From IMG/VR virus record IMGVR_UViG_2706796742_000001, positions 1 to 64,000 of that record: a stretch of DNA of 64,000 bases; one strand, written 5' to 3'. The notes beneath the pieces are model-generated. The model worked only from the letters and a program-made list of their open reading frames with translations. It ran no database searches and was not told the origin of the DNA. Source of the stretch: a virus (Duplodnaviria; Heunggongvirae; Uroviricota; Caudoviricetes). Positions 4,131 through 33,816 of this stretch are shown here, in pieces. The stretch's first letter is position 1. Each line of letters starts with the position of its first letter. The translations under genes were made by a program, and so were the position numbers.

Positions 4131-4803
4131 TGAAGTACTGTGTCATGCTTATGACTTACATCCTCATGAGTTAGGTCTTGATTCCTGTGTATGGACCCCA
4201 GAACAGTGCAGAGATTTTGAAGATACTGCAAGAGAGGTTGTATGTTCACTTGAAGAGTTCCACACATCAGAATCAATTGTGAACGTTGTGGACAAAGAGA
4301 CTGGACAATCTATAGGTGTAAGACGTGACAGTTTAGTCATAGTCAATAAAGACCTTGTAGAAAAAGGTAACCTCATCCTAGCAGATATTGATGGTGTTCT
4401 TACAAATTTTAATCACGAAGATTACTCAACAGAGTTGACTGACGGGTCATTTTCACAGTACACTAATCTTCTTGACTCTGTAAGAGCAAAACCAACATAT
4501 ATTTTCAATATCATTGATGCAATTGCTAATCATGCTGCTATCGGACTCTTGACAGCAAGAGGTGAAACTCAGAGAATACCTACTGAGATGTTCTTGAGGC
4601 ACAATATAGAACATGATTACATGCTTTTTATGCGTGGTTTTGGGACTAATTCTTTAAGTGCAGAAAGTTTAAAAGTCAGGATGATTCAGTCTTGCATTCT
4701 TCCTTACTTTAATATAGTATGTTTTATAGAAGATACAGAGAAGAATGTTCAGAAGGTTAACAGAATCCTTCCACACATCAAAACCATGTTAGTTAAACAT
4801 TGA
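4108..4803 (+). CDS. HAD-superfamily phosphatase-like protein (nucleotidase or polynucleotide 3'-phosphatase type)
   Basis: HAD motif I ILADIDGVLT, later GLLTARGE and FIEDTEKN acidic motif; overlaps upstream ORF by 23 nt. Confidence 0.45.
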   Translation: MKKLRRFDEVLCHAYDLHPHELGLDSCVWTPEQCRDFEDTAREVVCSLEEFHTSESIVNVVDKETGQSIGVRRDSLVIVNKDLVEKGNLILADIDGVLTNFNHEDYSTELTDGSFSQYTNLLDSVRAKPTYIFNIIDAIANHAAIGLLTARGETQRIPTEMFLRHNIEHDYMLFMRGFGTNSLSAESLKVRMIQSCILPYFNIVCFIEDTEKNVQKVNRILPHIKTMLVKH

Positions 4804-24226: not shown

Positions 24227-24453
24227 TTTTCAGTTCTCCTGCGATTTATGATTTTGCTGCAATAGAGAAACGAAGTAAACTCACTGGAAGAAACCATTAA
24301 GTGTTGTTCACTAGATTGAGCCATTGCCCTGAAATACATTCCAGTCAAAGCATCGTAGTGACTATTCTTTCCAATTGAGGTTATATAGCCATGACTCTTT
24401 GCAGTTTTATATAAATCTATAATATCTGCGATTTCTAATTGGGAACTACACAT
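24220..24453 (-). CDS. hypothetical protein
   Basis: 77-aa ORF. Confidence 0.4.
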   Translation of the reverse strand: MCSSQLEIADIIDLYKTAKSHGYITSIGKNSHYDALTGMYFRAMAQSSEQHLMVSSSEFTSFLYCSKIINRRRTEKC

Positions 24454-24617
24454 AGATAATCCTCTTGTCTTCTGTAATTTTGAAAGAACAGGTACAGACC
24501 AATTTCAGAGGATGAATAGTAGAGTAACTCTACCCTTTTTGATTCCTTACAGTGATTGGTATTTTTACCTTTCTTCGGGTTGTTTGATTTTCTCATTAAG
24601 TCTCCTTTGTAGAACAA
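24435..24617 (-). CDS. hypothetical protein (basic)
   Basis: 60-aa ORF, first gene of the leftward block. Confidence 0.35.
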   Translation of the reverse strand: MFYKGDLMRKSNNPKKGKNTNHCKESKRVELLYYSSSEIGLYLFFQNYRRQEDYLCVVPN

Positions 24618-24845
24618 GGCAGACCTACAGCTTTAAGTAAGATGGTACAGTAATCCATACAACAAGTCAAGAACTATTGCAAGTTAAAAAAGTTGTTGAC
24701 AAAGGACTTGACAAGGTGTAGGCTTATAAATACTTAGAAGATAACTTAAAAGGTTCCTCTAAAAAGGCTATTTAAACAGATATCTTTCTGGATATCTATC
24801 TTTTATCTTAAAAGCCTTTTAAGAGGTCTTATAAGAGGCATACCA

Positions 24846-25217
24846 ATGAAAAACAGAACAAACAAAGGCCAGTTTAAAAAAGGCCAGTCTGGAAACCCAT
24901 CTGGAAGACCAAAAGGCTCTCGTAACAAAAGCTCACTCGTAAAAGCTCAACTGACCATTGATAATTCTGCTGAGTTTGCTGCAAAGTTGTTTGAGGCGAT
25001 TGTTACAAGGGACGCTGCTAAGCTTGCAGAGTTCGGTTTGACGACTGACGATGTAAACCTGAAGTCAATGATGGAAGCTGGTAAAACTATCATGACCCAC
25101 TCAGCAGGTGAGATGAAAGCAATTGCAGCAGACACTAAGAAGACTCCTGATAACGGTGGTCAGTCTCAGACAGATAACAAACCAACGTTCTCTGCTGTTG
25201 CAACCCTCAAAAAATAA
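24846..25217 (+). CDS. hypothetical protein with conserved basic Gly-rich N-terminal motif
   Basis: Motif KGQSGNPSGRPKG at the N-terminus. Confidence 0.45.
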   Translation: MKNRTNKGQFKKGQSGNPSGRPKGSRNKSSLVKAQLTIDNSAEFAAKLFEAIVTRDAAKLAEFGLTTDDVNLKSMMEAGKTIMTHSAGEMKAIAADTKKTPDNGGQSQTDNKPTFSAVATLKK

Positions 25218-25229
25218 TTTTAAAAGGTG

Positions 25230-25259
25230 TTGACAGGCTCTACAAAGTTGCTCTAAAGT
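25230..25259 (+). promoter_or_regulatory. sigma70-like promoter upstream of vWA-protein gene
   Basis: TTGACA-N18-TAAAGT preceded by TTTTAAAAGGTG. Confidence 0.45.
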
Positions 25260-25298
25260 CTGTCACATCAAACAACAAATGAGAGAAGAGAGTAAAAT

Positions 25299-26714
25299 AT
25301 GAGCGAATTATTTAAACATGCGCACCTTCATGCAGGTCGAACTGAAAATGGTGCTATAAACCATACTTCACCAATGTCTGCTCTGGTAGACTTCTACAAA
25401 GCCGCTGGCTCAAGCCGTAGCAATGTAGAAATCTTACCAGACCTGTTCTACAAAGCTTTGCGTGAGGATGTTGATGTTGCAGTTCGTATTTTACTGCATA
25501 TGCGAGATGTACGAGAAGGTATGGGTGAGCGTAAAGCTTTCCGAACTGTTTTACTTCAAGCAATTGAAGATAAAGTTTTAGAGCCTACACAGGTTCTTCG
25601 TATTATGGATAAGATTGCAGAACTTGGTCGTTTTGATGACTTCAAAATCTTCGTAGGTACTCGTTTTGAGACAGATGCCTTCAAACATTTAGAAACAGCA
25701 TTACTAGACCCTGCAACAGCAGGTTTAGCAGCTAAGTGGTTACCACGAGTAAAACCACGCCACAAACAGTTTGTAAAACGTTTCTGTAAGTTTGCAAACT
25801 TAAGTGAGAAGGAGTATCGCACACTGTTATCTGCACTGTCTGATACGGTTGAGCAAAAAATCTCTGCTAATGAGTTTGGTAAGATTGACTACAGCAAGAT
25901 TCCTTCACTCGCTGCTGCACGTTACCAAAAACTCTTTAACCGTAAAGATGGGGAACGTTACAAAGCTTACATCGAGTCACTCTCAAAAGGTGAGGCTAAG
26001 ATTAATGCTGGTGCTGTTTACCCATACGATGTGATTAAATCTATTAAATATGGTAATGCAGATGTTGCTAATGAGCAGTGGAAAGCACTACCAAACTGGA
26101 TGGCAGAAGGTGAAAACATCCTGTGTATGACTGATGTTTCAAGCTCAATGTCTTGGGTGAATCTTGGCTCAATCACTGCCCTTGATATTGGTGTATCACT
26201 TGCCTTGTATGTAGCAGAACGCAATACAGGTTGCTTTAAAGATGAGTTAATGGTTTATTCAACAAACCCTCACTTCATCGAACTGAGTGGTGATTTACGA
26301 AACCGTCATCGTCAGGTAATGCGTCATGTTGAATATGGCTCAACTAACTTACAAGCAGCTTTTGACCGCATTCTTGAGACAGGTAAGAGAAACAACTTGA
26401 CTCAGAAAGATATGCCAAGTAAGCTTATCATCTTCTCTGATATGGAGTTTAATCAGGTTGATGGTGCAAATGGTCGTACAAACTTTGAAGCAATTCGTAG
26501 TAAGTACAAAAAAGCTGGATACGAAATGCCACAACTAGTATTCTGGTACTTAGCAAACCGTAATGGTACTTGCGAAGTATCTGTTAAGGATAATGGTGTA
26601 GCAATGGTATCAGGGTTCTCTCCAGCTACTTTAAAAGCTCTGCTTGGTGGTGAGAAGTTTGACCCAATCAGTGTAATGCTCAAAGCAGTAATGATTGACC
26701 GTTACATCTGGTAA
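25299..26714 (+). CDS. vWA-domain protein with alpha-helical N-terminal domain (possible TROVE/Ro60-like or DUF2828-type)
   Basis: MIDAS-like motif CMTDVSSSMS (DxSxS) with downstream Thr and IIFSDMEF acidic motif; preceded by TTGACA-N18-TAAAGT promoter; immediately upstream of tRNA cluster. Confidence 0.5.
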   Translation: MSELFKHAHLHAGRTENGAINHTSPMSALVDFYKAAGSSRSNVEILPDLFYKALREDVDVAVRILLHMRDVREGMGERKAFRTVLLQAIEDKVLEPTQVLRIMDKIAELGRFDDFKIFVGTRFETDAFKHLETALLDPATAGLAAKWLPRVKPRHKQFVKRFCKFANLSEKEYRTLLSALSDTVEQKISANEFGKIDYSKIPSLAAARYQKLFNRKDGERYKAYIESLSKGEAKINAGAVYPYDVIKSIKYGNADVANEQWKALPNWMAEGENILCMTDVSSSMSWVNLGSITALDIGVSLALYVAERNTGCFKDELMVYSTNPHFIELSGDLRNRHRQVMRHVEYGSTNLQAAFDRILETGKRNNLTQKDMPSKLIIFSDMEFNQVDGANGRTNFEAIRSKYKKAGYEMPQLVFWYLANRNGTCEVSVKDNGVAMVSGFSPATLKALLGGEKFDPISVMLKAVMIDRYIW

Positions 26715-26732
26715 AAAGTTTTAAAAAGGGTA

Positions 26733-26761
26733 TTGACAATGTGTTTGATACCCTTTAATAT
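26733..26761 (+). promoter_or_regulatory. strong sigma70-like promoter upstream of tRNA cluster
   Basis: TTGACA-N17-TAATAT preceded by AAAAAGTTTTAAAAAGGG. Confidence 0.6.
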
Positions 26762-26823
26762 GTTCTACATAGAAACGAAATGAGAGCTTTTCTAAGATAC
26801 TGAAAAATATTTTAAAAAAGTTC

Positions 26824-26853
26824 TTGACAACCACTAAAAAATAATGTTAAAGT
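26824..26853 (+). promoter_or_regulatory. second sigma70-like promoter upstream of tRNA cluster
   Basis: TTGACA-N18-TAAAGT, about 27 nt before first tRNA. Confidence 0.5.
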
Positions 26854-26879
26854 GGTTACATAGAGTTTGAAAAGTTTAT

Positions 26880-26956
26880 CTCTGTTTAGCTCAGCTTGGT
26901 AGAGCGTTCCGTTTGGGGCGGTAAGGCCGGAGGTTCAAGTCCTCCAACAGAGACCA
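26880..26956 (+). tRNA. tRNA-Pro (anticodon TGG)
   Basis: Hand-folded cloverleaf: acceptor CTCTGTT/AACAGAG, T-arm GGAGG-TTCAAGT-CCTCC, anticodon loop TTTGGGG, CCA encoded. Confidence 0.6.
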
Positions 26957-26963
26957 AATTAAT

Positions 26964-27040
26964 GTTCCAGTAGACAAAATGGTATAGTCACCACTCTTTC
27001 AAAGTGGATATTTGAGGGTTCAAATCCCTTCTGGAACGCC
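26964..27040 (+). tRNA. tRNA-Glu (anticodon TTC)
   Basis: Acceptor GTTCCAG/CTGGAAC, anticodon stem CCACT/AGTGG, loop CTTTCAA, T-arm GAGGG-TTCAAAT-CCCTT. Confidence 0.65.
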
Positions 27041-27044
27041 AGTT

Positions 27045-27122
27045 TTGACAGAAGACCAATTACAGCAAACTTAATCTTATACATCTGAAGGTAAATCGGA
27101 CAAAGAAGAGATTTGGTCTGGT
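27045..27122 (+). other. conserved inter-tRNA element E1
   Basis: 5' box CAGAAGACCAATTACAGCAAACTTAA and 3' TTTGGTCTGG able to pair with the 5' AGACCAAA; no T-loop. Confidence 0.5.
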
Positions 27123-27131
27123 CATTAAGAA

Positions 27132-27208
27132 TTGCGGGTATAGAGAAAGGGCGTCTCACATGTCTCATTAGCATGGTATCGGCAGGTTCGACTCCTGCAC
27201 CCGCCTCC
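27132..27208 (+). tRNA. tRNA with CAT anticodon (Met, initiator or Ile-lysidine type); 1-72 mismatch
   Basis: T-arm GCAGG-TTCGACT-CCTGC, anticodon stem CATGT/GCATG, loop CTCATTA; U1-C72 unpaired. Confidence 0.45.
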
Positions 27209-27211
27209 AAT

Positions 27212-27277
27212 TTTGCAGAAGACCGTATGCAGCAATAAACTACTTTTTGCGGATAAAAGAAAAAAACACGGTCTGGC
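27212..27277 (+). other. conserved inter-tRNA element E2
   Basis: CAGAAGACCGTATGCAGCAATAAACT ... CGGTCTGG. Confidence 0.5.
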
Positions 27278-27286
27278 AATGTATTA

Positions 27287-27363
27287 AGGTTAGGAAGCAC
27301 ATAAGGTATGTGCGGTCGCCTGTTAAGCGAATGGCACAGGGTTCGAATCCCTGACTAACCGCC
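27287..27363 (+). tRNA. tRNA-Asn (anticodon GTT)
   Basis: D-stem GCAC/GTGC, anticodon loop CTGTTAA, T-arm CAGGG-TTCGAAT-CCCTG. Confidence 0.65.
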
Positions 27364-27432
27364 AAATTTAGGAGAGAAGCGATTGCTCACCGATTTGTAA
27401 GGTGCAAGTCCTTAGCCTGAATAGAAATTAAA

Positions 27433-27520
27433 TGTGTCGTTATCCCGTAGATGGTAGCGGTGGGGACTGTAAATCCCTTGTCATTGAGACTCGGTAGGTT
27501 CGACTCCTACACGGCACACC
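27433..27520 (+). tRNA. tRNA-Tyr (anticodon GTA), long variable arm
   Basis: 88 nt; acceptor GTGTCGT/ACGGCAC, anticodon loop CTGTAAA, T-arm GTAGG-TTCGACT-CCTAC. Confidence 0.6.
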
Positions 27521-27525
27521 AATAA

Positions 27526-27603
27526 AGGCTATGTAGTTTAATAGGGTTAAAATACTCCCCTGTCACGGGAGATGATGTGAGTTCAAGTCTCATCGTAGCC
27601 GCC
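27526..27603 (+). tRNA. tRNA-Asp (anticodon GTC)
   Basis: Anticodon stem CTCCC/GGGAG, loop CTGTCAC, T-arm GTGAG-TTCAAGT-CTCAT. Confidence 0.6.
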
Positions 27604-27635
27604 AATTTTGAGAGGGCTATTTAGCCCCTCCCTTA

Positions 27636-27668
27636 AAGGGTTCTTACGAGTATCCTTTAAAGGGGCAG
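27636..27668 (+). other. conserved hairpin element, copy 1
   Basis: TTAAAGGGTTCTTACGAGTATCCTTTAA (7-bp stem, 14-nt loop). Confidence 0.45.
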
Positions 27669-27741
27669 AAGACCAAATTCAGCAAGTTACTTAAAATTTC
27701 AAGCCAATTCAATTTTGAAAAAATTTAAAACTTGGTCTGGC
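27662..27741 (+). other. conserved inter-tRNA element E3
   Basis: CAGAAGACCAAATTCAGCAAGTTACTTAA ... TTGGTCTGG. Confidence 0.5.
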
Positions 27742-27750
27742 TCAACAAAT

Positions 27751-27835
27751 TTACAGAAGACCGTTTACAGCAAAACTTAAACAATCTATTTCTCGGTAAA
27801 GAAAAGGCGAAGGTTCGATTCCCTCCACTTCTACC
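27751..27835 (+). other. conserved element E4 with tRNA-like 3' half
   Basis: CAGAAGACCGTTTACAGCAAAACTTAA then GAAGG-TTCGATT-CCCTC T-arm-like hairpin and CCA; only 5 acceptor pairs and no convincing D or anticodon arm. Confidence 0.4.
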
Positions 27836-27839
27836 AATA

Positions 27840-27916
27840 TGGTTCAGTCGCAGATAAGGTAATGCAAGGGTTTCATAAGCCCTATGAATGTGGGTTCGAA
27901 TCCCATCTGAACCTCC
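27840..27916 (+). tRNA. tRNA-Met (anticodon CAT)
   Basis: Acceptor GGTTCAG/CTGAACC, anticodon loop TTCATAA with three G-C pairs in stem, T-arm GTGGG-TTCGAAT-CCCAT. Confidence 0.6.
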
Positions 27917-27918
27917 AA

Positions 27919-27993
27919 TTGTGGGTTAGCATAAATGGTAATGCAAACGGCTGATAACCGTTAGAAGAGGGTTCGATACCCTCACCTACAACC
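27919..27993 (+). tRNA. tRNA-Ile (anticodon GAT)
   Basis: Anticodon stem AACGG/CCGTT, loop CTGATAA, T-arm GAGGG-TTCGATA-CCCTC. Confidence 0.65.
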
Positions 27994-28008
27994 AATTTTA
28001 ATAAAGTT

Positions 28009-28037
28009 GTTGACATTGAGATGTGACCACTTTATAG
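28009..28037 (+). promoter_or_regulatory. strong internal sigma70-like promoter in tRNA cluster
   Basis: TTGACA-N17-TATAGT preceded by A/T-rich tract. Confidence 0.6.
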
Positions 28038-28330
28038 TAACTAAAATACTTCATAATATGTATAATTCAAACACCAATACATGAGCATTAGACGTAATGC
28101 AATGTGGGGAAATTTGTTGTACATATTCTGAATAGTTTTCGTTGCGTAGCGTCTATTTTGCAAATTTAAAATAAATGCAAACGACAATGTTTTTCTGGCA
28201 GTAGCTTGATAGGCTAAACACCAGTGAGGTCTTCCAATCCCTCATCAAAGAATTTGGCGTACTAGCCCACGGTATGATTAATAAGGTGGGCATCTTTAAG
28301 GGCTTTCTAAGAGAGTCTTTAAAGATTAAT

Positions 28331-28407
28331 GCACCCTTAGTTCAACTGGACAGAACAAATGACTTCTAATCATTAGGTTACAGGTTCGAATCCTGTAGGG
28401 TGTGCCA
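28331..28407 (+). tRNA. tRNA-Arg (anticodon TCT)
   Basis: D-stem GTTC/GAAC, anticodon stem AATGA/TCATT, loop CTTCTAA, T-arm ACAGG-TTCGAAT-CCTGT. Confidence 0.7.
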
Positions 28408-28549
28408 AATAGTTAGCAGATTGCTTAGACGACCTTATCGGGTCTCCGTGTAGGGAGGTGGTCTGTATCTCATGTTTTCCAGAACATGTAAATAATCTGA
28501 GAAGGGGCTTTACAGTGTTGTGAAAATACGGTAAGCTTCGAATTATAGT

Positions 28550-28632
28550 GTGGGACGATGTTAAGACTCTAAGGCATGAGCAACGGCCTCCAAAACCGTT
28601 TCAAAGTGGTTCAACTCCTCCGTCCCATGCCA
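28550..28632 (+). tRNA. atypical tRNA-like gene, possibly tRNA-Trp (anticodon CCA) with expanded D region
   Basis: 7-bp acceptor GTGGGAC/GTCCCAT plus CCA; candidate loop CTCCAAA; T-arm weak; D region about 7 nt too long. Confidence 0.3.
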
Positions 28633-28645
28633 AAGTCTTATTAGG

Positions 28646-28733
28646 GGTAGGTAGCGGCTAATGGTAGCCAAACAGTCTTGAAAACTGTTGCCACTGTAGA
28701 GATACGGTGAGGGTTCGACTCCTTTACTTACCG
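28646..28733 (+). tRNA. tRNA-Ser (anticodon TGA), long variable arm
   Basis: Anticodon stem ACAGT/ACTGT, loop CTTGAAA, long variable arm, discriminator G; CCA not fully encoded. Confidence 0.6.
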
Positions 28734-28987
28734 CCTAATAAGATTTAGACCGTCATGCTCGCTCGCATTTTCGGTTTATCCCTCGTGTGTTGTCGTACAC
28801 AAGTAAAGCACCTAGTAGGTGTCACGGAGAAGAGATAATATCAAGCTCTCCAAAGGTTCTAGTCACCGGATTAAACAAGACTATGCAAAGACCTATTTAG
28901 GTCTTTTTAGAGAACTTCTAAGGTTATTACAGCTTGTTGTGGAACCTTGTTGCTTAGGTTCTTAGAAGTTCTCTAAAAAGATTTAAT

Positions 28988-29064
28988 GCACCTATAGCCC
29001 AACTGGTAGAGGCAGCAGACTTAGAATCTGCTCAGTGTGAGTTCGAATCTCTCTAGGTGTACCA
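28988..29064 (+). tRNA. tRNA with anticodon TAG (Leu by code) but short variable loop
   Basis: Leu-like D-arm GCC-CAACTGGTAGA-GGC, anticodon stem GCAGA/TCTGC, loop CTTAGAA, 5-nt variable loop, discriminator A. Confidence 0.45.
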
Positions 29065-29071
29065 AATTAAT

Positions 29072-29147
29072 GCAGGTGTAGCAAAATGGTTATGCGGCTG
29101 ACTCTTAATCAGTAAGACGATGGGTTCAATTCCCTCCACCTGTACCA
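29072..29147 (+). tRNA. tRNA-Lys (anticodon CTT)
   Basis: Anticodon stem GCTGA/TCAGT, loop CTCTTAA; T-arm has two mismatches. Confidence 0.5.
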
Positions 29148-29153
29148 GACATT

Positions 29154-29229
29154 GGGGATGTAGTTTACATGGTTAAAACATAAGTTTTGCAAACTTAAGT
29201 ACAGGGTTCAATTCCCTGCTTCTCCACCA
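29154..29229 (+). tRNA. tRNA-Ala (anticodon TGC)
   Basis: G3-U70 wobble pair in acceptor (Ala identity), D-stem GTTT/AAAC, loop TTTGCAA, T-arm CAGGG-TTCAATT-CCCTG. Confidence 0.7.
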
Positions 29230-29235
29230 ATTAGT

Positions 29236-29310
29236 GCATCCATAGTTTAAACGGGAAAATTACAGTCTTCCAAACTGAGGTTGAGGGTTCGATTCCCTCT
29301 GGATGCTCCA
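29236..29310 (+). tRNA. tRNA-Gly (anticodon TCC)
   Basis: Acceptor GCATCCA/TGGATGC, loop CTTCCAA, T-arm GAGGG-TTCGATT-CCCTC. Confidence 0.6.
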
Positions 29311-29317
29311 AATTAAT

Positions 29318-29394
29318 GCTGCTTTCGTATAATTGGCTATTACACATCCATTGTAAGGATGGAAATGCAGGTTCGAGTCCTGTGAGCAGCACCA
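29318..29394 (+). tRNA. tRNA-Thr (anticodon TGT)
   Basis: Anticodon stem CATCC/GGATG, loop ATTGTAA, T-arm GCAGG-TTCGAGT-CCTGT. Confidence 0.65.
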
Positions 29395-29489
29395 ATTCAG
29401 AGGTCAAGTGAAAGACCGCTGGTGTCAACTGAAGACCGTAACAAATTCCACGGAGTTGAGTTAGCGGCACAACTTCAGACCTCTTTCAC
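29395..29489 (+). other. divergent copy E5 of the inter-tRNA element
   Basis: CTGAAGACCGTAACAAATTCCA; flanking inverted repeat CAGAGGTC ... GACCTCT. Confidence 0.35.
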
Positions 29490-29564
29490 ACTCGCTTAGT
29501 TTATATGGTAAAACATCACCCTTACAAGATGAAGAAAAAGGTTCAAGTCCTTTAGTGAGTACCA
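29490..29564 (+). tRNA. tRNA-Val (anticodon TAC)
   Basis: D-stem GTTT/AAAC, loop CTTACAA, T-arm AAAGG-TTCAAGT-CCTTT; one C-A mismatch in anticodon stem. Confidence 0.55.
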
Positions 29565-29565
29565 T

Positions 29566-29643
29566 GTTCCAGTATCCCAATTGGCAGAGGATGCAAGCTC
29601 AAACCTTGTATTAGTGACGGTTCGAATCCGTCTTGGAACACCA
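29566..29643 (+). tRNA. tRNA with anticodon CAA (Leu by code) but short variable loop
   Basis: Leu-like D-arm TCC-CAATTGGCAGA-GGA, anticodon stem GCAAG/CTTGT, loop CTCAAAC, 6-nt variable loop, T-arm GACGG-TTCGAAT-CCGTC. Confidence 0.45.
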
Positions 29644-29659
29644 ATTTTAGGAGAACACT

Positions 29660-29767
29660 ATGAGTGATAAATCAATTGCAAAAAAGTTTATAGCGTCATT
29701 CAAAAATAGGCGTAAAAACAAAGATTGTGAAAATCTGTATGGTGTTCTTGTAGGTAAGCAGGATTAG
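29660..29767 (+). CDS. possible small basic protein (35 aa) inside the tRNA cluster
   Basis: AGGAG RBS 6 nt before ATG; ORF MSDKSIAKKFIASFKNRRKNKDCENLYGVLVGKQD; 3' end overlaps start of a tRNA. Confidence 0.25.
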   Translation: MSDKSIAKKFIASFKNRRKNKDCENLYGVLVGKQD

Positions 29768-29833
29768 TTCAAATGGATAGAGCAGCAGTCTACGAAGCTG
29801 TTAATAGGGGTTCGAATCCCTTATCCTGCGCCA
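29758..29833 (+). tRNA. tRNA-Arg (anticodon ACG)
   Basis: Acceptor GCAGGAT/ATCCTGC, loop CTACGAA, T-arm AGGGG-TTCGAAT-CCCTT. Confidence 0.65.
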
Positions 29834-29852
29834 ATTTAAAGAGGCTATTTAG

Positions 29853-30410
29853 ATGAGATATTTGAAGTATGCTTCATGGATTTTCCTAGCTTTGCTAGAA
29901 CCATTTGCAGCAATCCTAGCAGTCATCTTAGCACCTTTTGTAGTTCCATTCTACAGTGAGAAGAAAGGGCACTTACCTTTCGGCTTCAGATGGATGGAGA
30001 CATATGACAACCCAATTGATGGTGATAAAGGTCATGTTGAACGATGGGCTAAGATTAGAAAGGTTGGTAAGCTTGGTGTCTATATGCAGAGAGTCGGTTG
30101 GCTCTGGAGAAACAAAGCTTATAACTTCTCTTACCATGTGTTAGGAAGAGATGTAAAAGATGTTACTAAGTGGAAAGGTAATATCAATGTAAGTTCTGAC
30201 CCTGAAGATAATCAGACAGGTTATCTCCTAATGTGGAACAGCAATGCTTGGGGATTATTTGCTTTTGTACCATCAATTAAAGTCTTTGGTAAACAGTTTT
30301 ACTGGAGAATTTATATTGGATGGAAACTTAAAAGTGTTGTCCCAGAAGAAAGAGCATTCTCAAGGGAAAGAGTTATGTTGGCATTCTTTATTCATCCACT
30401 AAGAAAATAA
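29853..30410 (+). CDS. membrane protein embedded in tRNA cluster
   Basis: N-terminal hydrophobic stretch WIFLALLEPFAAILAVILAPFVVPF; RBS agagg; flanked by tRNAs. Confidence 0.5.
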   Translation: MRYLKYASWIFLALLEPFAAILAVILAPFVVPFYSEKKGHLPFGFRWMETYDNPIDGDKGHVERWAKIRKVGKLGVYMQRVGWLWRNKAYNFSYHVLGRDVKDVTKWKGNINVSSDPEDNQTGYLLMWNSNAWGLFAFVPSIKVFGKQFYWRIYIGWKLKSVVPEERAFSRERVMLAFFIHPLRK

Positions 30411-30418
30411 AGATTTAA

Positions 30419-30494
30419 AGGGGATTAGTTTACAAGGTTAAAACCTCGGTCTTTGAAATCGAAGAAGTTGGTTCAATTCCAACATCCCCCGCCA
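30419..30494 (+). tRNA. tRNA-Gln (anticodon TTG)
   Basis: D-stem GTTT/AAAC, loop CTTTGAA, T-arm GTTGG-TTCAATT-CCAAC; unpaired 1-72 position. Confidence 0.6.
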
Positions 30495-30496
30495 AT

Positions 30497-30575
30497 GCTC
30501 CATTACTCCAATTGGCAGAGAGGCCAGACTTAAAATCTGTGTTATGTATCGGTTCGAATCCGATATGGAGTACCA
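30497..30575 (+). tRNA. tRNA with anticodon TAA (Leu by code) but short variable loop
   Basis: Leu-like D-arm CTC-CAATTGGCAGA-GAG, loop CTTAAAA, 7-nt variable loop, T-arm ATCGG-TTCGAAT-CCGAT, discriminator A. Confidence 0.45.
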
Positions 30576-30580
30576 AATTT

Positions 30581-30656
30581 AGCGGTATAGCATAACTGGC
30601 AATGCAGCAGTCTCTGAAGCTGTCTTATTAAGGTTCAAATCCTTATGCCGCTGCCA
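30581..30656 (+). tRNA. tRNA-Gln (anticodon CTG)
   Basis: Anticodon stem GCAGT/GCTGT, loop CTCTGAA, T-arm TAAGG-TTCAAAT-CCTTA, weak A1-U72 pair. Confidence 0.6.
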
Positions 30657-30657
30657 C

Positions 30658-30690
30658 TTCTAAGGGTTCTTACGAGAGTCCTTAAATGTG
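30658..30690 (+). other. conserved hairpin element, copy 2
   Basis: CTAAGGGTTCTTACGAGAGTCCTTAAA, same loop core GGGTTCTTACGAG as copy 1. Confidence 0.45.
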
Positions 30691-30763
30691 GCCTTATCAT
30701 AAATGGTAATGACCCATGCTGTGAACATGGTCTATACGGGTTCAAATCCCGTAGGTCACCCCA
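30688..30763 (+). tRNA. tRNA-His (anticodon GTG)
   Basis: Anticodon stem CCATG/CATGG, loop CTGTGAA, T-arm ACGGG-TTCAAAT-CCCGT, discriminator C. Confidence 0.65.
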
Positions 30764-30768
30764 ATTTA

Positions 30769-30843
30769 TAGTCCAAGTAGCTTATATGGTTAAAGCGCGT
30801 GTCTGAAAAACATGAGAAGAGGGTTCAAATCCCACTGGACTAC
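30769..30843 (+). tRNA. tRNA-Phe (anticodon GAA)
   Basis: Acceptor TAGTCCA/TGGACTA, D-stem GCTT/AAGC, anticodon stem CGTGT/ACATG, loop CTGAAAA; two extra nt before D-stem. Confidence 0.5.
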
Positions 30844-30861
30844 CAATTTCAAAGGTGCTTA

Positions 30862-31596
30862 ATGAAAGAGATGACAGAACAAGGTAAGGAGATTTTTAAT
30901 CTCTTAAAAACCGGTAGAGGGTTTTCTAATCCCCTTATTACTGGTGCAGCAGTTCTCGGTGGAACCGTAGCTGCCTCTACATCACTTGTAAGCTCTATTA
31001 GCTCTGTAACAGACCCTACAATAAAGGATAAGCTTATTGCTGCTGGACTTACAACAGTTCTACTTAGCAGCTTTACAACGAGTCTGACAAGCACTACATC
31101 AACCACTAAAACACTGACAGATTACGGTCAAAAGTCCATTGATGAGTTTTCATCACGTATGCAGGTAGCAAAAGGATATTCTAATGCTATGGGTGCAGCA
31201 GGAGAGCAAGTCGGTTGTACACCTTTTAGTGGTATTATGGGTGTTGCTACAGAATATGGTCAAAAAGCTATTGACACAATTAACAGTGCACTAGATAGTG
31301 TTAACGGTGTGTTAAGTGACTTACAGGATGCTATTGACGAAGGTCTTGATACTATTTCTGATTTAGCTAACCAAGCTGTTAGCAAGATTAATGAAGGTAT
31401 CTCGAAGATTACAGCTTATGCAGACGAAGTTGTGCAGATGATTGAAGAAGAAGCTGCCCTTATTGCAGAGTACCTTAAAACGAATATCAATGGGTTCTTA
31501 GCAGGTATCTTACCAGACTGGTTTGATGATGCTTGTAAAACTGGTGTAATTGACACTATTGCAACACCAGAAATGAAGAACGCATTACAGAAATAA
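30862..31596 (+). CDS. hypothetical Ser/Thr-rich protein
   Basis: Start moved from track ATG 30799 (which overlaps a tRNA) to in-frame ATG at 30862 with aaagg RBS. Confidence 0.45.
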   Translation: MKEMTEQGKEIFNLLKTGRGFSNPLITGAAVLGGTVAASTSLVSSISSVTDPTIKDKLIAAGLTTVLLSSFTTSLTSTTSTTKTLTDYGQKSIDEFSSRMQVAKGYSNAMGAAGEQVGCTPFSGIMGVATEYGQKAIDTINSALDSVNGVLSDLQDAIDEGLDTISDLANQAVSKINEGISKITAYADEVVQMIEEEAALIAEYLKTNINGFLAGILPDWFDDACKTGVIDTIATPEMKNALQK

Positions 31597-31597
31597 T

Positions 31598-31690
31598 GGA
31601 AGATTAACCCTAAAAGGTAAGGGAGCAGTTTGCTAAACTGCCAGTAGCTGAGAAATCGGTGTACCAGTTCAAGTCTGGTATCTTCCTCCA
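31598..31690 (+). tRNA. tRNA-Ser (anticodon GCT), long variable arm
   Basis: 93 nt; acceptor GGAAGAT/ATCTTCC, anticodon stem GCAGT/ACTGC, loop TTGCTAA, T-arm ACCAG-TTCAAGT-CTGGT, CCA encoded. Confidence 0.55.
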
Positions 31691-31694
31691 ATTT

Positions 31695-31770
31695 GAATCC
31701 GTGACAGAAATGGCTATGTGCCTGTCTGCAAAACAGGTTTATAAGGGTTCGAGTCCCTTCGGATTCTCCA
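31695..31770 (+). tRNA. tRNA-Cys (anticodon GCA)
   Basis: Acceptor GAATCCG/CGGATTC, anticodon stem CCTGT/ACAGG, loop CTGCAAA, T-arm AAGGG-TTCGAGT-CCCTT, discriminator T. Confidence 0.65.
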
Positions 31771-31807
31771 AGTTATTTTACTCTCTCTCAATTAAAATAA
31801 TAATAAT

Positions 31808-31868
31808 GCCCTGCTATAAGTATTCTTCCTTTCGCTACCGAAGAGTATTTTTAGACAGGGCTTTTTTA
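31808..31868 (+). terminator. long-hairpin terminator after tRNA cluster
   Basis: GCCCTG...CAGGGC imperfect long stem followed by TTTTTT. Confidence 0.5.
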
Positions 31869-31932
31869 CAGAGTTATACTTTATAAGAAGCCTTATACAG
31901 TATGTCTCTGACGTACATTGTGGTTTCTCCTT

Positions 31933-31957
31933 GACGGTCTCTGTACCGTCTTTTTTA
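31933..31957 (+). terminator. rho-independent terminator
   Basis: GACGGTCTCTGTACCGTC followed by TTTTTT. Confidence 0.5.
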
Positions 31958-31992
31958 AGGGGGAACATGATTAATTATTTGGAGAAAACATA

Positions 31993-32193
31993 ATGAGCGA
32001 AAACATCTATAAAGAACTTTATGAAGCTAATAAGAAGCTAGAATTTATGCAGAACACTATCATGGCAATTGCAGATAGATTGTCTGTAGCAACAGGTATT
32101 GATATCAAAGAAGCCTCTATGGATGCACTTCTTGATGCTGTTGATGCAAAGTTCGAAGTTAAGAAAGAAGAGACTGCTACAGACTCTGAATAA
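31993..32193 (+). CDS. hypothetical small protein preceding terminase
   Basis: 66-aa acidic ORF directly upstream of the large terminase gene. Confidence 0.4.
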   Translation: MSENIYKELYEANKKLEFMQNTIMAIADRLSVATGIDIKEASMDALLDAVDAKFEVKKEETATDSE

Positions 32194-32199
32194 TTCTAT

Positions 32200-33816
32200 T
32201 TGCGGAGGTGCTTAATGGATTTAAATGCTGTTAAGCAGAAGCGAGTGGAAGATGTTAGGAAAGTCCTAGCTGGAGAGTTGGGGCTTTCTGATGAAGTAAA
32301 AGAAATTATTAAATCATTCGGTAAAGACCCCTCTAAATTCCTTCCAACTCAAATTCTGACTTTATTAAGATACACACCAGACCAAGTTAGGCTTATCTTC
32401 AAATTAATGACTGATAAGAACTATGTAGCACCTCAACCGGGTTCTCAAGAGGTGTTTTTAAATACTAATGCTGACTTGGTTTTATATGGTGGTGCTGCTG
32501 GTGCTGGTAAAACTGCTGCATTGTTAATGGACTCCTTAAGGTTTATTGAAGACCCTAACTATAATGCTGTATATTTCCGTCGAAATACAACACAGTTACA
32601 AGGTGGTTTATGGCCTGCTGCAAAGAAACTATTTGGTAAGTTTGGCGGGGTTCCTCACGAGCAGAAGATGACTATCACATTCCCTTCTGGGGCAACTATC
32701 AAGTTCACCTACCTAGAACTTGAAAAGCACGCTGAAGGTCATCAGGGTATTGAATACTCAGCTATCTACTTTGACGAAGGTACACACTTCTCTGCTTCAC
32801 AGATTTCATACCTACAGACCCGTCTGCGTTCTGGTGCTGAAGGTGATTCATACATGAAGATTTCTATGAACCCAGATAGAGACCACTTCATTTATGATTG
32901 GGTAGAGCCATTCTTAGATGAAGAAGGTTACCCAGACCCTGAGAAATGTGGTCGTATTCGTTGGTATGTTATGAATGATGGTGTGATGGTTTCTGATTGG
33001 GAGAGAGACAAGATTCTTGAAATGTTCCCTCTTGAGATTCCTCAGACATACACCTTCATCTCTGGTACGATTGATGATAACCCAATTCTTGACTTCTTAG
33101 AGCCTAAATATCGTGGTAAGTTGGAAAACAACACACCTGTAAACGTTGCAAGACTTCGTTTCGGTAACTGGAAGGCTCGTGCAGAAGGTTCAAACTATTG
33201 GCAAAGACAATGGTGTGAGATTGTTGATTCACTACCAGAAGATGTGTTTGATGTCAGAGCATGGGACTTAGCAGCAACTTTACCATCTGAAATTAACCCT
33301 AACCCAGACTGGACAGCGGGTGTTAAGATGGGTAAATCTAAAAAAGACGGTTGCTATTATATCATTGATGTAGTAAGATTTAGAGATAGACCCTCTGGAG
33401 TCGAAACACAAATTAATTTGACTGCTGAAAGTGACGGTAAGCGAACTGGTATTTTTATCCCTCAAGACCCAGGCGCTGCTGGTAAATCCTATGCAACATC
33501 CCTCATCAGGAAACTTGCCGAGAAAGGTTATCGCGCAAGAGCTAAACCAACAAATAAAGATAAAGTTACCCGCTTTGCGGGATTTTCTGCTGCTTCTGAA
33601 GCTGGACTTGTAAAAGTCTTGAGAGGCAGTTGGAACGAAGCTTACTTTCAAGAACTTGAAGGTTTTTGTGGTGATGGTAAAACTAAAGATGACCAAGTGG
33701 ATGCTACCAGTGATGCTTTCAACAGTCTTAACGAAGTTAAATTATTCAAGCCACCATCAATGGGTGCTCATACAGACTTAGTGAGAGGAAACCCATATGA
33801 GGGGCTTAGACGTTGA
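32200..33816 (+). CDS. terL: terminase large subunit
   Basis: Walker A LYGGAAGAGKT near N-terminus, Walker B-like IYFDEG, C-terminal acidic nuclease-like residues; first gene of structural module. Confidence 0.75.
   Translation: MRRCLMDLNAVKQKRVEDVRKVLAGELGLSDEVKEIIKSFGKDPSKFLPTQILTLLRYTPDQVRLIFKLMTDKNYVAPQPGSQEVFLNTNADLVLYGGAAGAGKTAALLMDSLRFIEDPNYNAVYFRRNTTQLQGGLWPAAKKLFGKFGGVPHEQKMTITFPSGATIKFTYLELEKHAEGHQGIEYSAIYFDEGTHFSASQISYLQTRLRSGAEGDSYMKISMNPDRDHFIYDWVEPFLDEEGYPDPEKCGRIRWYVMNDGVMVSDWERDKILEMFPLEIPQTYTFISGTIDDNPILDFLEPKYRGKLENNTPVNVARLRFGNWKARAEGSNYWQRQWCEIVDSLPEDVFDVRAWDLAATLPSEINPNPDWTAGVKMGKSKKDGCYYIIDVVRFRDRPSGVETQINLTAESDGKRTGIFIPQDPGAAGKSYATSLIRKLAEKGYRARAKPTNKDKVTRFAGFSAASEAGLVKVLRGSWNEAYFQELEGFCGDGKTKDDQVDATSDAFNSLNEVKLFKPPSMGAHTDLVRGNPYEGLRR

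Follow-up and report, generated by a model that had tools for sequence, protein, structure and literature searches.

A Ro60-like protein of a Felix O1-like phage is encoded beside a recurrent stem-CAGCAA RNA element

The sequence analysed here, referred to as the window, comprises 64,000 nucleotides (nt; positions 1 to 64,000) of the IMG/VR virus record IMGVR_UViG_2706796742_000001 and belongs to a Felixounavirus (Felix O1-like phage). It encodes a 471-residue protein with a predicted Ro60-like structure, whose gene opens with an ATG and lies 165 nt upstream of an array of 25 tRNA genes called by ARAGORN, 23 of which also reach the Rfam tRNA threshold (Table 1). A first-pass annotation, made from the letters alone, had described the gene as co-oriented with the array and directly upstream of it, which is the case; it had, however, set the end of the gene at 26880, which is the first base of tRNA-Pro, and the gene ends at 26714. 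The junction between the gene and the tRNAs is kept in approximately 250 Felixounavirus/phage records at 79-98% DNA identity and recurs across diverse loci, so the adjacency is no chance feature of one genome. Between the tRNA genes a small RNA element recurs in which a single-stranded CAGCAA follows a 7-bp stem, and it is this element that accompanies the Ro-like gene in most of the phage lineages surveyed.

Table 1. Positions of the Ro-like gene, its predicted domains and the neighbouring features in the window
Feature	Position	Strand	Remarks
Sigma70-like promoter match TTGACA-18-TAAAGT	25230..25259	+	Upstream of Ro-like gene; consensus match only
Ro60-like protein gene	25299..26714	+	471 aa; DUF2828 + DUF7788; PHROG 850
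N-terminal all-helical domain, approx. aa 1-268	25299..26102	+	Predicted TROVE-like HEAT-repeat part of Ro60 fold
C-terminal vWA domain, approx. aa 272-471	26112..26711	+	
MIDAS codons DxSxS	26133-26147	+	
MIDAS codon T349	26343-26345	+	
MIDAS codon D381	26439-26441	+	
12-bp hairpin	26725..26756	+	Just 3' of Ro-like stop codon; overlaps promoter-like site
Second promoter-like site	26733-26761		In gene-array gap; sigma70-like match
Promoter-like site TTGACA-18-TAAAGT with TG	26824..26853	+	Before tRNA array; repeat family D13; consensus match
tRNA array, 25 genes	26880..31770	+	Co-oriented with Ro-like gene; ARAGORN, Rfam
E1, AGACCAA-UUA-CAGCAA...UUGGUCU-G	27053..27120	+	Between tRNA-Glu and tRNA-Met; spacers of 11-12 nt
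E2, AGACCGU-AUG-CAGCAA...ACGGUCU-G	27220..27275	+	Between tRNA-Met and tRNA-Asn
E3, AGACCAA-AUU-CAGCAA...UUGGUCU-G	27670..27739	+	
E4 remnant	27754..27840	+	5' stem strand, UUACAGCAA and YrlA-type T-arm, joined to 3' end of tRNA-Lys(UUU)
Terminator-like hairpin with T-run	31933..31950	+	After last tRNA

The protein belongs to DUF2828 (PF11443; E 3.6e-28, 99 bits against a cut-off of 29), a Pfam family that the first-pass annotation had named as a candidate, and to DUF7788 (PF25043; E 5.8e-43, 147 bits, cut-off 27.1). PHROG 850, labelled 'RNA-binding protein', matches it over its full length (residues 1-471, E 4.6e-183). With clustering at 50% identity, a profile search recovered 8,807 representatives at E<=1e-3, nearly all of them viral or metagenomic; 4,050 reached E<=1e-30. 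Thirty-eight homologues with identities down to 40% were aligned, and the residues that had been read by eye as a MIDAS (metal-ion-dependent adhesion site), D279-x-S281-x-S283 (DVSSSMS), T349 (GSTN) and D381 (SDME), are invariant in all of them. The AlphaFold2 model built on this alignment is confident (pLDDT 86.3, pTM 0.86) and bears out the helical N-terminal domain of about 270 residues that had been proposed to precede the von Willebrand factor A (vWA) domain, with 16 helices up to residue 263 and an alpha/beta domain thereafter.

When the model was compared with the PDB using Foldseek, the eight top matches were all Ro60, aligned over the full length with E-values of 2e-7 to 6e-6 and TM-scores of up to 0.65; proteins sharing only the vWA domain ranked after them (E>4e-3), the closest being midasin and NorD. 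As Ro60 supplies the eight best full-length matches, the model supports a TROVE-like N-terminal domain and a Ro60 architecture for the whole protein. At the sequence level, no member of the 38-sequence set matched TROVE (PF05731) at E<=10, vWA_Ro60 (PF25045) gave weak matches in five of the 38 (best E 0.0022), and neither phmmer nor the 38-sequence profile found Ro60 or any other entry among the PDB sequences. The Ro60-type domain order proposed in the first-pass annotation therefore stands by whole-protein structure comparison and has no counterpart in sequence searches, and the protein is best described as a predicted, much diverged representative of the Ro60 structural family whose kinship is visible by structure only.

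At 460 of 471 residues (98%) the protein is identical to bas63_0130 of Escherichia phage JohannRWettstein (Bas63, MZ501086), which has the same length, the same flanking genes and the same place directly upstream of tRNA-Pro/Glu/Met/Asn, with the downstream tRNA order also shared. It is thus orthologous to Bas63 gp130, which is reported to counter the Ppl defence. In the PhageMaP preprint (2024, PMC11482910), deletion of g130 led to small plaques on cells carrying Ppl (ATPase + PHP), the defect was complemented in trans, and gp130 alone, either on a plasmid or inserted in T7, restored the plaquing of T7 on ppl cells. Its authors also saw that the predicted structure of gp130 is Ro60-like and guessed that some of the adjoining tRNA genes are Y RNAs; the protein-level insight is right, yet it is already published as a hypothesis. 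The stem-CAGCAA elements were not identified there, and the RNA element, its family-wide linkage to the gene and its resemblance to Class I RNAs (described below) appear to be new. Another Ro60-like open reading frame (ORF) is mentioned in a paper on a Vibrio jumbo phage, and canonical Ro60 with Y-like RNAs is reported from mycobacteriophages, phage G, CcrColossus and Thermus phage phiLo.

Within the tRNA array the sequence CAGAAGACC-N5-CAGCAA is present in four copies, against 0.16 expected by chance, and in three of these the complement of the stem follows 40-50 nt later. These three copies, E1 to E3, all have the stem, CAGCAA and a CUG end, and their spacers are UUA in E1 (as in the Class I motif), AUG in E2 and AUU in E3. 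The stems of E1 and E2 differ by compensatory changes (AGACCAA/UUGGUCU versus AGACCGU/ACGGUCU), and each of the two elements occupies a slot between two tRNAs with spacers of 10-12 nt. A Y-RNA-like embedding of tRNA-Met, in which GGUCUGG and CAGAAGACC would pair across the tRNA that they flank, was considered and rejected; it fits one of the three cases, and the compensatory changes favour a hairpin within each element.

The fourth copy, E4, is damaged. Comparison with two related loci (L001 8843-9200 and L082 22780-23135) shows that a deletion of approximately 275 bp between the T-arms of E4 and tRNA-Lys(UUU) has fused both, so that 27754-27840 is a chimera and the window phage has neither an intact E4 nor tRNA-Lys(UUU). 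In this it differs from Bas63 and SLAM_phiST56, where both are intact. By folding and inspection, the closing stem of the intact E4 of other Felixounaviruses (118-127 nt) encloses a T-arm (GAAGG-UUCGAUU-CCUUC), then a stem and then a hairpin resembling a D-arm; the same permuted T-arm/stem/D-arm order is predicted by folding for SLAM_phiST56 and Bas63, where the tRNA-model score is only 22 bits. In the Bas63 record, E3 and E4 are overlaid by tiny minus-strand 'hypothetical' coding sequences (CDSs), bas63_0137 and bas63_0138 (L082, record 82748-83022), which are probably mis-annotations.

The first-pass annotation had pointed to the E elements and to a tRNA-like gene further into the array as places where the helix bound by Ro60 might be found. 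This idea was dropped, as GNCGAAG is absent from E1-E3 and from the tRNA-like gene (28552-28632). Across the window the motif is only marginally above chance, with 20 matches against 10.25 expected (one in 100 shuffles reached 20); it is not concentrated in the array, where its one occurrence is in the T-arm of the E4 remnant. The tRNA-like gene itself (+ strand) also lacks CAGCAA. Its acceptor-like stem spans 10 bp, its T-arm is degenerate and it ends in CCA; a CCA (Trp) anticodon loop is possible, tRNA-Trp being otherwise absent from the array. ARAGORN makes no call here and the sole Rfam match, over 28552-28626, is to tRNA-Sec at 21 bits.

Linkage of the element to the gene was assessed in 72 IMG/VR loci (731 kb) encoding homologues of 39-48% protein identity. 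An explicit descriptor was used, not a covariance model, and MAFFT split the 3' strand of the hairpin in both trial alignments. The descriptor reads [A/U]-G-R-N4, N3, CAGCAA, 8-300 nt of loop, the complement over 7 nt, in which no more than one G-U pair is tolerated, and G. It matched 83 times on the strand of the gene, never on the opposite strand and 0-1 times in 20 shuffles. The matches cluster at the gene, with 73 of the 83 lying no more than 1 kb from it on either side, and at least one match falls within 1 kb in 54 of the 72 loci, including loci without tRNAs. A looser descriptor gave 113 matches on the gene strand versus 27 on the other. Applied to the whole window, the original descriptor returned exactly three matches, E1, E2 and E3, all on the + strand and 339-1025 nt past the stop codon of the gene, with none on the opposite strand; nine other Felixounaviruses gave four matches each on the gene strand and none opposite.

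The consensus of the element consists of a 7-bp terminal stem W-G-R-NNNN, a spacer N-U-A/U, the single-stranded CAGCAA and an end Y-C-W-G. Positions left free by the descriptor are also conserved, the second spacer position being U in 75 of 77 instances and the fifth stem position U in 66 of 77. The median length of the elements is 62 nt, and their loops are almost free of G and are A-rich before the 3' strand.

Nothing else around the gene is as constant. No protein family co-occurs in more than 14 of the 72 loci, and the top ORF cluster, the one reaching 14, is drawn entirely from one clade; the RNA element is therefore the sole general companion of the Ro-like gene. No conserved RtcB, RNA ligase, PNPase or AAA+ partner was found around the gene in these loci. 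Transfer RNAs lie within 5 kb in 32 of the 72, with 243 of those 246 tRNAs on the strand of the gene, and the other 40 have no tRNA within that distance. T-loop motifs adjoining the gene were not found in the tRNA-less loci, and the Rfam Y_RNA and YrlA models found nothing at gathering thresholds in 13 of them.

One clade of tRNA-less marine phages carries a conserved, ORF-free stretch of about 400 nt 3' of the gene, ending in an intrinsic terminator. It opens with the hairpin GGUUCC-UUA-CAGCAA...GGAACC-AGG, followed by a second copy of the motif that pairs about 270 nt downstream. Both helices are predicted by RNAalifold on a syntenic alignment, which was not chosen for pairing, with compensatory pairs at four of seven positions (none broken) and at two of six, and with almost no broken pairs in all. 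The second, long-range helix closes a conserved structured RNA of about 280 nt, which in L015, L023, L024 and related tRNA-less marine phage loci lies about 100-380 nt past the gene (alignment A2, columns 102-382). It has a covarying closing stem with the UACAGCAA motif, ends before the terminator, holds two nearly invariant GNCGAAG matches (GGUCGAAG and GCCGAAGAC) and has no match in Rfam.

The association was also examined in reverse, by scanning IMG/VR for AAGGNNNCTTACAGCAA, which gave 120 loci. A Ro-like gene was present in 11 of the 47 loci in which the sequence forms the hairpin versus none of the 73 in which it does not fold, and, among loci with 3 kb of flank on both sides, in three of 11 versus none of 15. 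Most of the orphan hairpins are inside phage tRNA arrays and on the tRNA strand, as in the window, and the Ro-like gene may be farther off on these contigs. Three of the reverse-test matches are metagenome-assembled genomes of giant viruses, one of which has three tandem elements beside a DUF2828/DUF7788 gene.

The locus was compared with known Ro60-Y RNA systems (Xenopus and human Ro60, D. radiodurans Rsr-Yrn1, Salmonella rsr-yrlBA-rtcBA, mycobacteriophage Ro and the phiRo60-Yrl1/2 of Thermus phage phiLo). Like Ro60 and Rsr, the phage protein is predicted to combine a helical TROVE ring with a MIDAS vWA domain, and small structured RNAs lie on the same strand no more than a few hundred nt from its gene (Chen 2014; phiLo). 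As in Y RNAs, a terminal stem closes the RNA and a conserved motif adjoins it on the 5' side, and some phage copies appear to contain a permuted tRNA-like domain (T then D) as YrlA does. In one relative (L065), a YrlA match of 43.5 bits (E 2e-6 in 66 kb), its T-arm preceding its D-arm, falls inside an element at 4459-4594 that has the stem and CAGCAA; in an independent locus (L139), four tandem elements upstream of the Ro-like gene have a 32.9-bit YrlA match next to them, and a fifth element is found among tRNAs. Both of these matches adjoin the gene and are below the gathering score of 69. The phage system differs in several respects: the phage protein is about 60 residues shorter than Ro60 with no detectable sequence membership, the motif is N-U-A-CAGCAA after a 7-bp stem rather than GNCGAAN0-1G or GGUCCGA, most phage copies are simple hairpins of about 60 nt without a tRNA-like domain, and the phage neighbourhood has no RtcB/RtcA or PNPase gene. 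The ribonucleoprotein (RNP) module that the first-pass annotation had suggested is thus strengthened by the presence of a gene-linked RNA element, although the RNA differs from the one proposed.

A second resemblance is to the Class I RNAs of Dictyostelium. These abundant, stable RNAs are described as measuring about 60 nt, beginning with AAG and finishing with CUGU; their terminal stem covaries, a single-stranded motif spans 11 nt and the genes are clustered (Kjellin et al. 2021, PMC7919456). They are reported to be unique to Dictyostelia, to have their own DUSE (Dictyostelium upstream sequence element) promoters and to bind Rnp1A, an RNA-recognition motif protein. The Rfam consensus RF01414 combines a stem of 6 bp with CUUACAGCAA, a 3' loop rich in A and a CUG end. 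The phage elements share the length of about 60 nt, a covarying stem of 6-7 bp, CCUUACAGCAA right after the 5' strand, the A-rich 3' loop, the AAG start, the CUGU end and the clustering, and the consensus of the 77 instances, with ..UUACAGCAA next to the 5' strand, fits both RF01414 and the published description. The RF01414 model, which was built from amoeba sequences only, scores the short phage elements at 19.5-30.7 bits exactly at the descriptor sites, all below the gathering score of 41.5; E2 of the window is a weak match to this model (Dicty_Class_I_RNA) at 19.5 bits. A literature search found no paper linking Class I RNAs to Ro60 or TROVE, and found 'DUF2828' only in papers unrelated to this question. 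A search for a dictyostelid DUF2828 protein, started from a giant-virus homologue, gave metagenomic proteins only.

The reading that we favour, with moderate confidence, is that the Ro-like protein and the stem-CAGCAA RNAs form an RNP in which the E elements would play for the Ro-like protein the part that Y RNAs play for Ro60. In Felixounaviruses the elements would be cut from the tRNA precursor by tRNA-processing enzymes (RNase P and 3' processing), because each fills a 'tRNA slot' with short spacers. The protein would bind them through the stem and CAGCAA, and the resulting RNP may modulate, tether or gate the action of the protein on host or phage RNA-processing and defence factors.

Several observations weigh against this reading. 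Expression of the elements and their binding by the protein are what we infer from sequence. The loci in which matches were counted had also served to refine the descriptor, although independent controls come from the opposite strand, the shuffles, the window and the Rfam model; 18 of the 72 loci have no match within 1 kb. Eight of the 11 hairpins with 3 kb of flank have no Ro-like gene nearby and sit in tRNA arrays. In the window, E1-E3 show no folding advantage over shuffled sequence (z about -1.3) and lack the Ro60/Rsr recognition motif GNCGAAN0-1G, and no Y_RNA or YrlA Rfam match was obtained in 24400-32200 even at E<=10. Lastly, since gp130 alone suffices in T7, which has none of the phage RNAs, the anti-Ppl activity does not depend on them (PMC11482910). 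The RNAs may then regulate the protein or serve another of its functions, or the anti-Ppl activity may be a protein-protein effect exerted via the MIDAS.

If the last of these applied throughout, the protein would be an anti-defence inhibitor acting by itself, blocking Ppl directly, for example with its MIDAS face in the manner of vWA domains and their AAA+ partners, and the RNAs would be irrelevant and co-located with it in an accessory or early region. This we consider unlikely. The rescue of T7 and complementation of the Bas63 g130 deletion on ppl hosts by gp130 alone (PMC11482910) speak for it, as does the invariance of the MIDAS site across the family, and the nearest vWA-only structural neighbours, midasin and NorD, are partners of AAA+ ATPases. 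It leaves unexplained, however, why a covarying RNA element on the same strand is found within 1 kb in 54 of 72 lineages whose neighbourhoods are otherwise unrelated, and why the whole Ro60 ring fold is conserved beyond the vWA domain. The vWA-MIDAS co-factors of AAA+ ATPases (midasin/Rea1, NorD and the MoxR-vWA pairs) have no N-terminal TROVE-like ring, and the phage gene has no adjacent AAA+ partner gene. A family of 8,807 clusters is, moreover, far broader than a single defence system suggests.

Alternatively, the true RNA clients could be the phage tRNAs or pre-tRNAs, with the ring serving as a quality-control factor, a 3'-end/processing chaperone or a shield and the E elements as processing punctuation. 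The strand bias of the tRNAs in the 32 loci that have them, often 18-770 nt downstream of the gene, agrees with this, as do the orphan hairpins inside tRNA arrays and the known binding of misfolded small-RNA precursors by Ro60 (the PDB matches include Ro60 with misfolded pre-5S rRNA). We nevertheless hold it to be improbable, as the 40 loci with neither a tRNA within 5 kb nor a T-loop motif beside the gene have kept both the gene and stem-CAGCAA RNAs, and a conserved single-stranded hexamer is not expected in a simple spacer. That the elements are cis-acting sites in the mRNA or precursor (an operator for autoregulation, or a place where an RNase enters or stops) and not stable trans-acting RNAs is very improbable: short copies (33-40 nt) do lie 27-60 nt upstream of the Ro-like start codon in four loci (L012, L013, L019 and L047), and tRNA-less phages co-transcribe the elements with the gene ahead of a shared terminator, yet tandem arrays of three to five copies, tRNA-like spacing inside tRNA arrays, larger copies enclosing tRNA-like domains and the close resemblance to the abundant, stable Class I RNAs all speak against it.

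The surroundings of the gene and array hold further features. The hairpin just past the stop codon of the gene has no clear T-tract, so read-through from the gene is likely, and with two promoter-like sites (beginning at 26733 and 26824) the array is probably served by its own promoters in addition. The operon may end at the hairpin after the last tRNA. Three copies of an A/T-rich box, AAAA(N)TTTTAAAAA..TTGACA (26713-26739, 26804-26830 and 27990-28016), look like a shared upstream element of phage early promoters. Protein genes near or inside the array are found at 24846-25217, 29853-30410 and 30799-31596 (+); a DUF5681 gene is just upstream of the Ro-like gene, and DUF7338 and DUF7217 genes are embedded among the tRNAs, DUF7338 being labelled 'holin' in one related record.

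Other parts of the array are also structured. A tRNA-free gap of 337 nt (27995-28330, +) contains a near-consensus promoter match (28010-28038) and weak tmRNA-like (transfer-messenger RNA) matches, to tmRNA_permuted at 23 bits (27937-28209) and to tmRNA at 15 bits (28141-28330); the equivalent gap of Bas63, from tRNA-Ile to tRNA-Arg, holds a small minus-strand 'hypothetical' CDS, bas63_0142. A 31-nt repeat, AAGGGTTCTTACGAG..TCCTT, is found at 27636-27666 and 30662-30692 (84% identical) as hairpins between tRNAs, and the region 27605-27750 has a better fold than its shuffled versions (z -2.8). The 69-nt spacer between tRNA-Asn and tRNA-Tyr (27365-27433, +) forms a stable hairpin (z -2.6, with 0 of 200 shuffles as stable) and contains the T-loop-like GGTGCAAGTCC; it may be a further degenerate tRNA-like element. 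In two unrelated phages with a Ro-like gene, group I intron matches lie near tRNA arrays, one above threshold at 59 bits (L139 3462-3704, -) and one of 36.7 bits (L065 11103-11310, +). In L044 (1257-1707) and L060 (10822-11176) ARAGORN predicts a phage-encoded tmRNA gene no more than 5 kb from the Ro-like gene, and tmRNA calls are also found in two of the orphan-hairpin loci (L122 and L202).

A broader proposal, which we put forward tentatively and regard as possible rather than probable, is that the DUF2828 Ro-like proteins and the stem-UUACAGCAA RNAs are an ancient RNP family parallel to Ro60-Y RNA, spread over thousands of phage lineages and giant viruses. The dictyostelid Class I RNAs would then be further members of that RNA family, having perhaps been acquired along with a DUF2828 protein or acting by way of one. 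In phages the pair, attached to tRNA arrays, would act as a general module for RNA-based counter-defence or for RNA surveillance. The protein family is very large and usually annotated as 'hypothetical', and one of its members has a demonstrated anti-defence phenotype. With a sequence-defined candidate RNA ligand in most lineages, a protein that is Ro60-like by structure becomes a testable RNP, and the elements account for gaps that recur, unannotated or mis-annotated, in the tRNA arrays of phages. They may also provide the first lead on the protein partner and the evolutionary origin of the Dictyostelium Class I RNAs.

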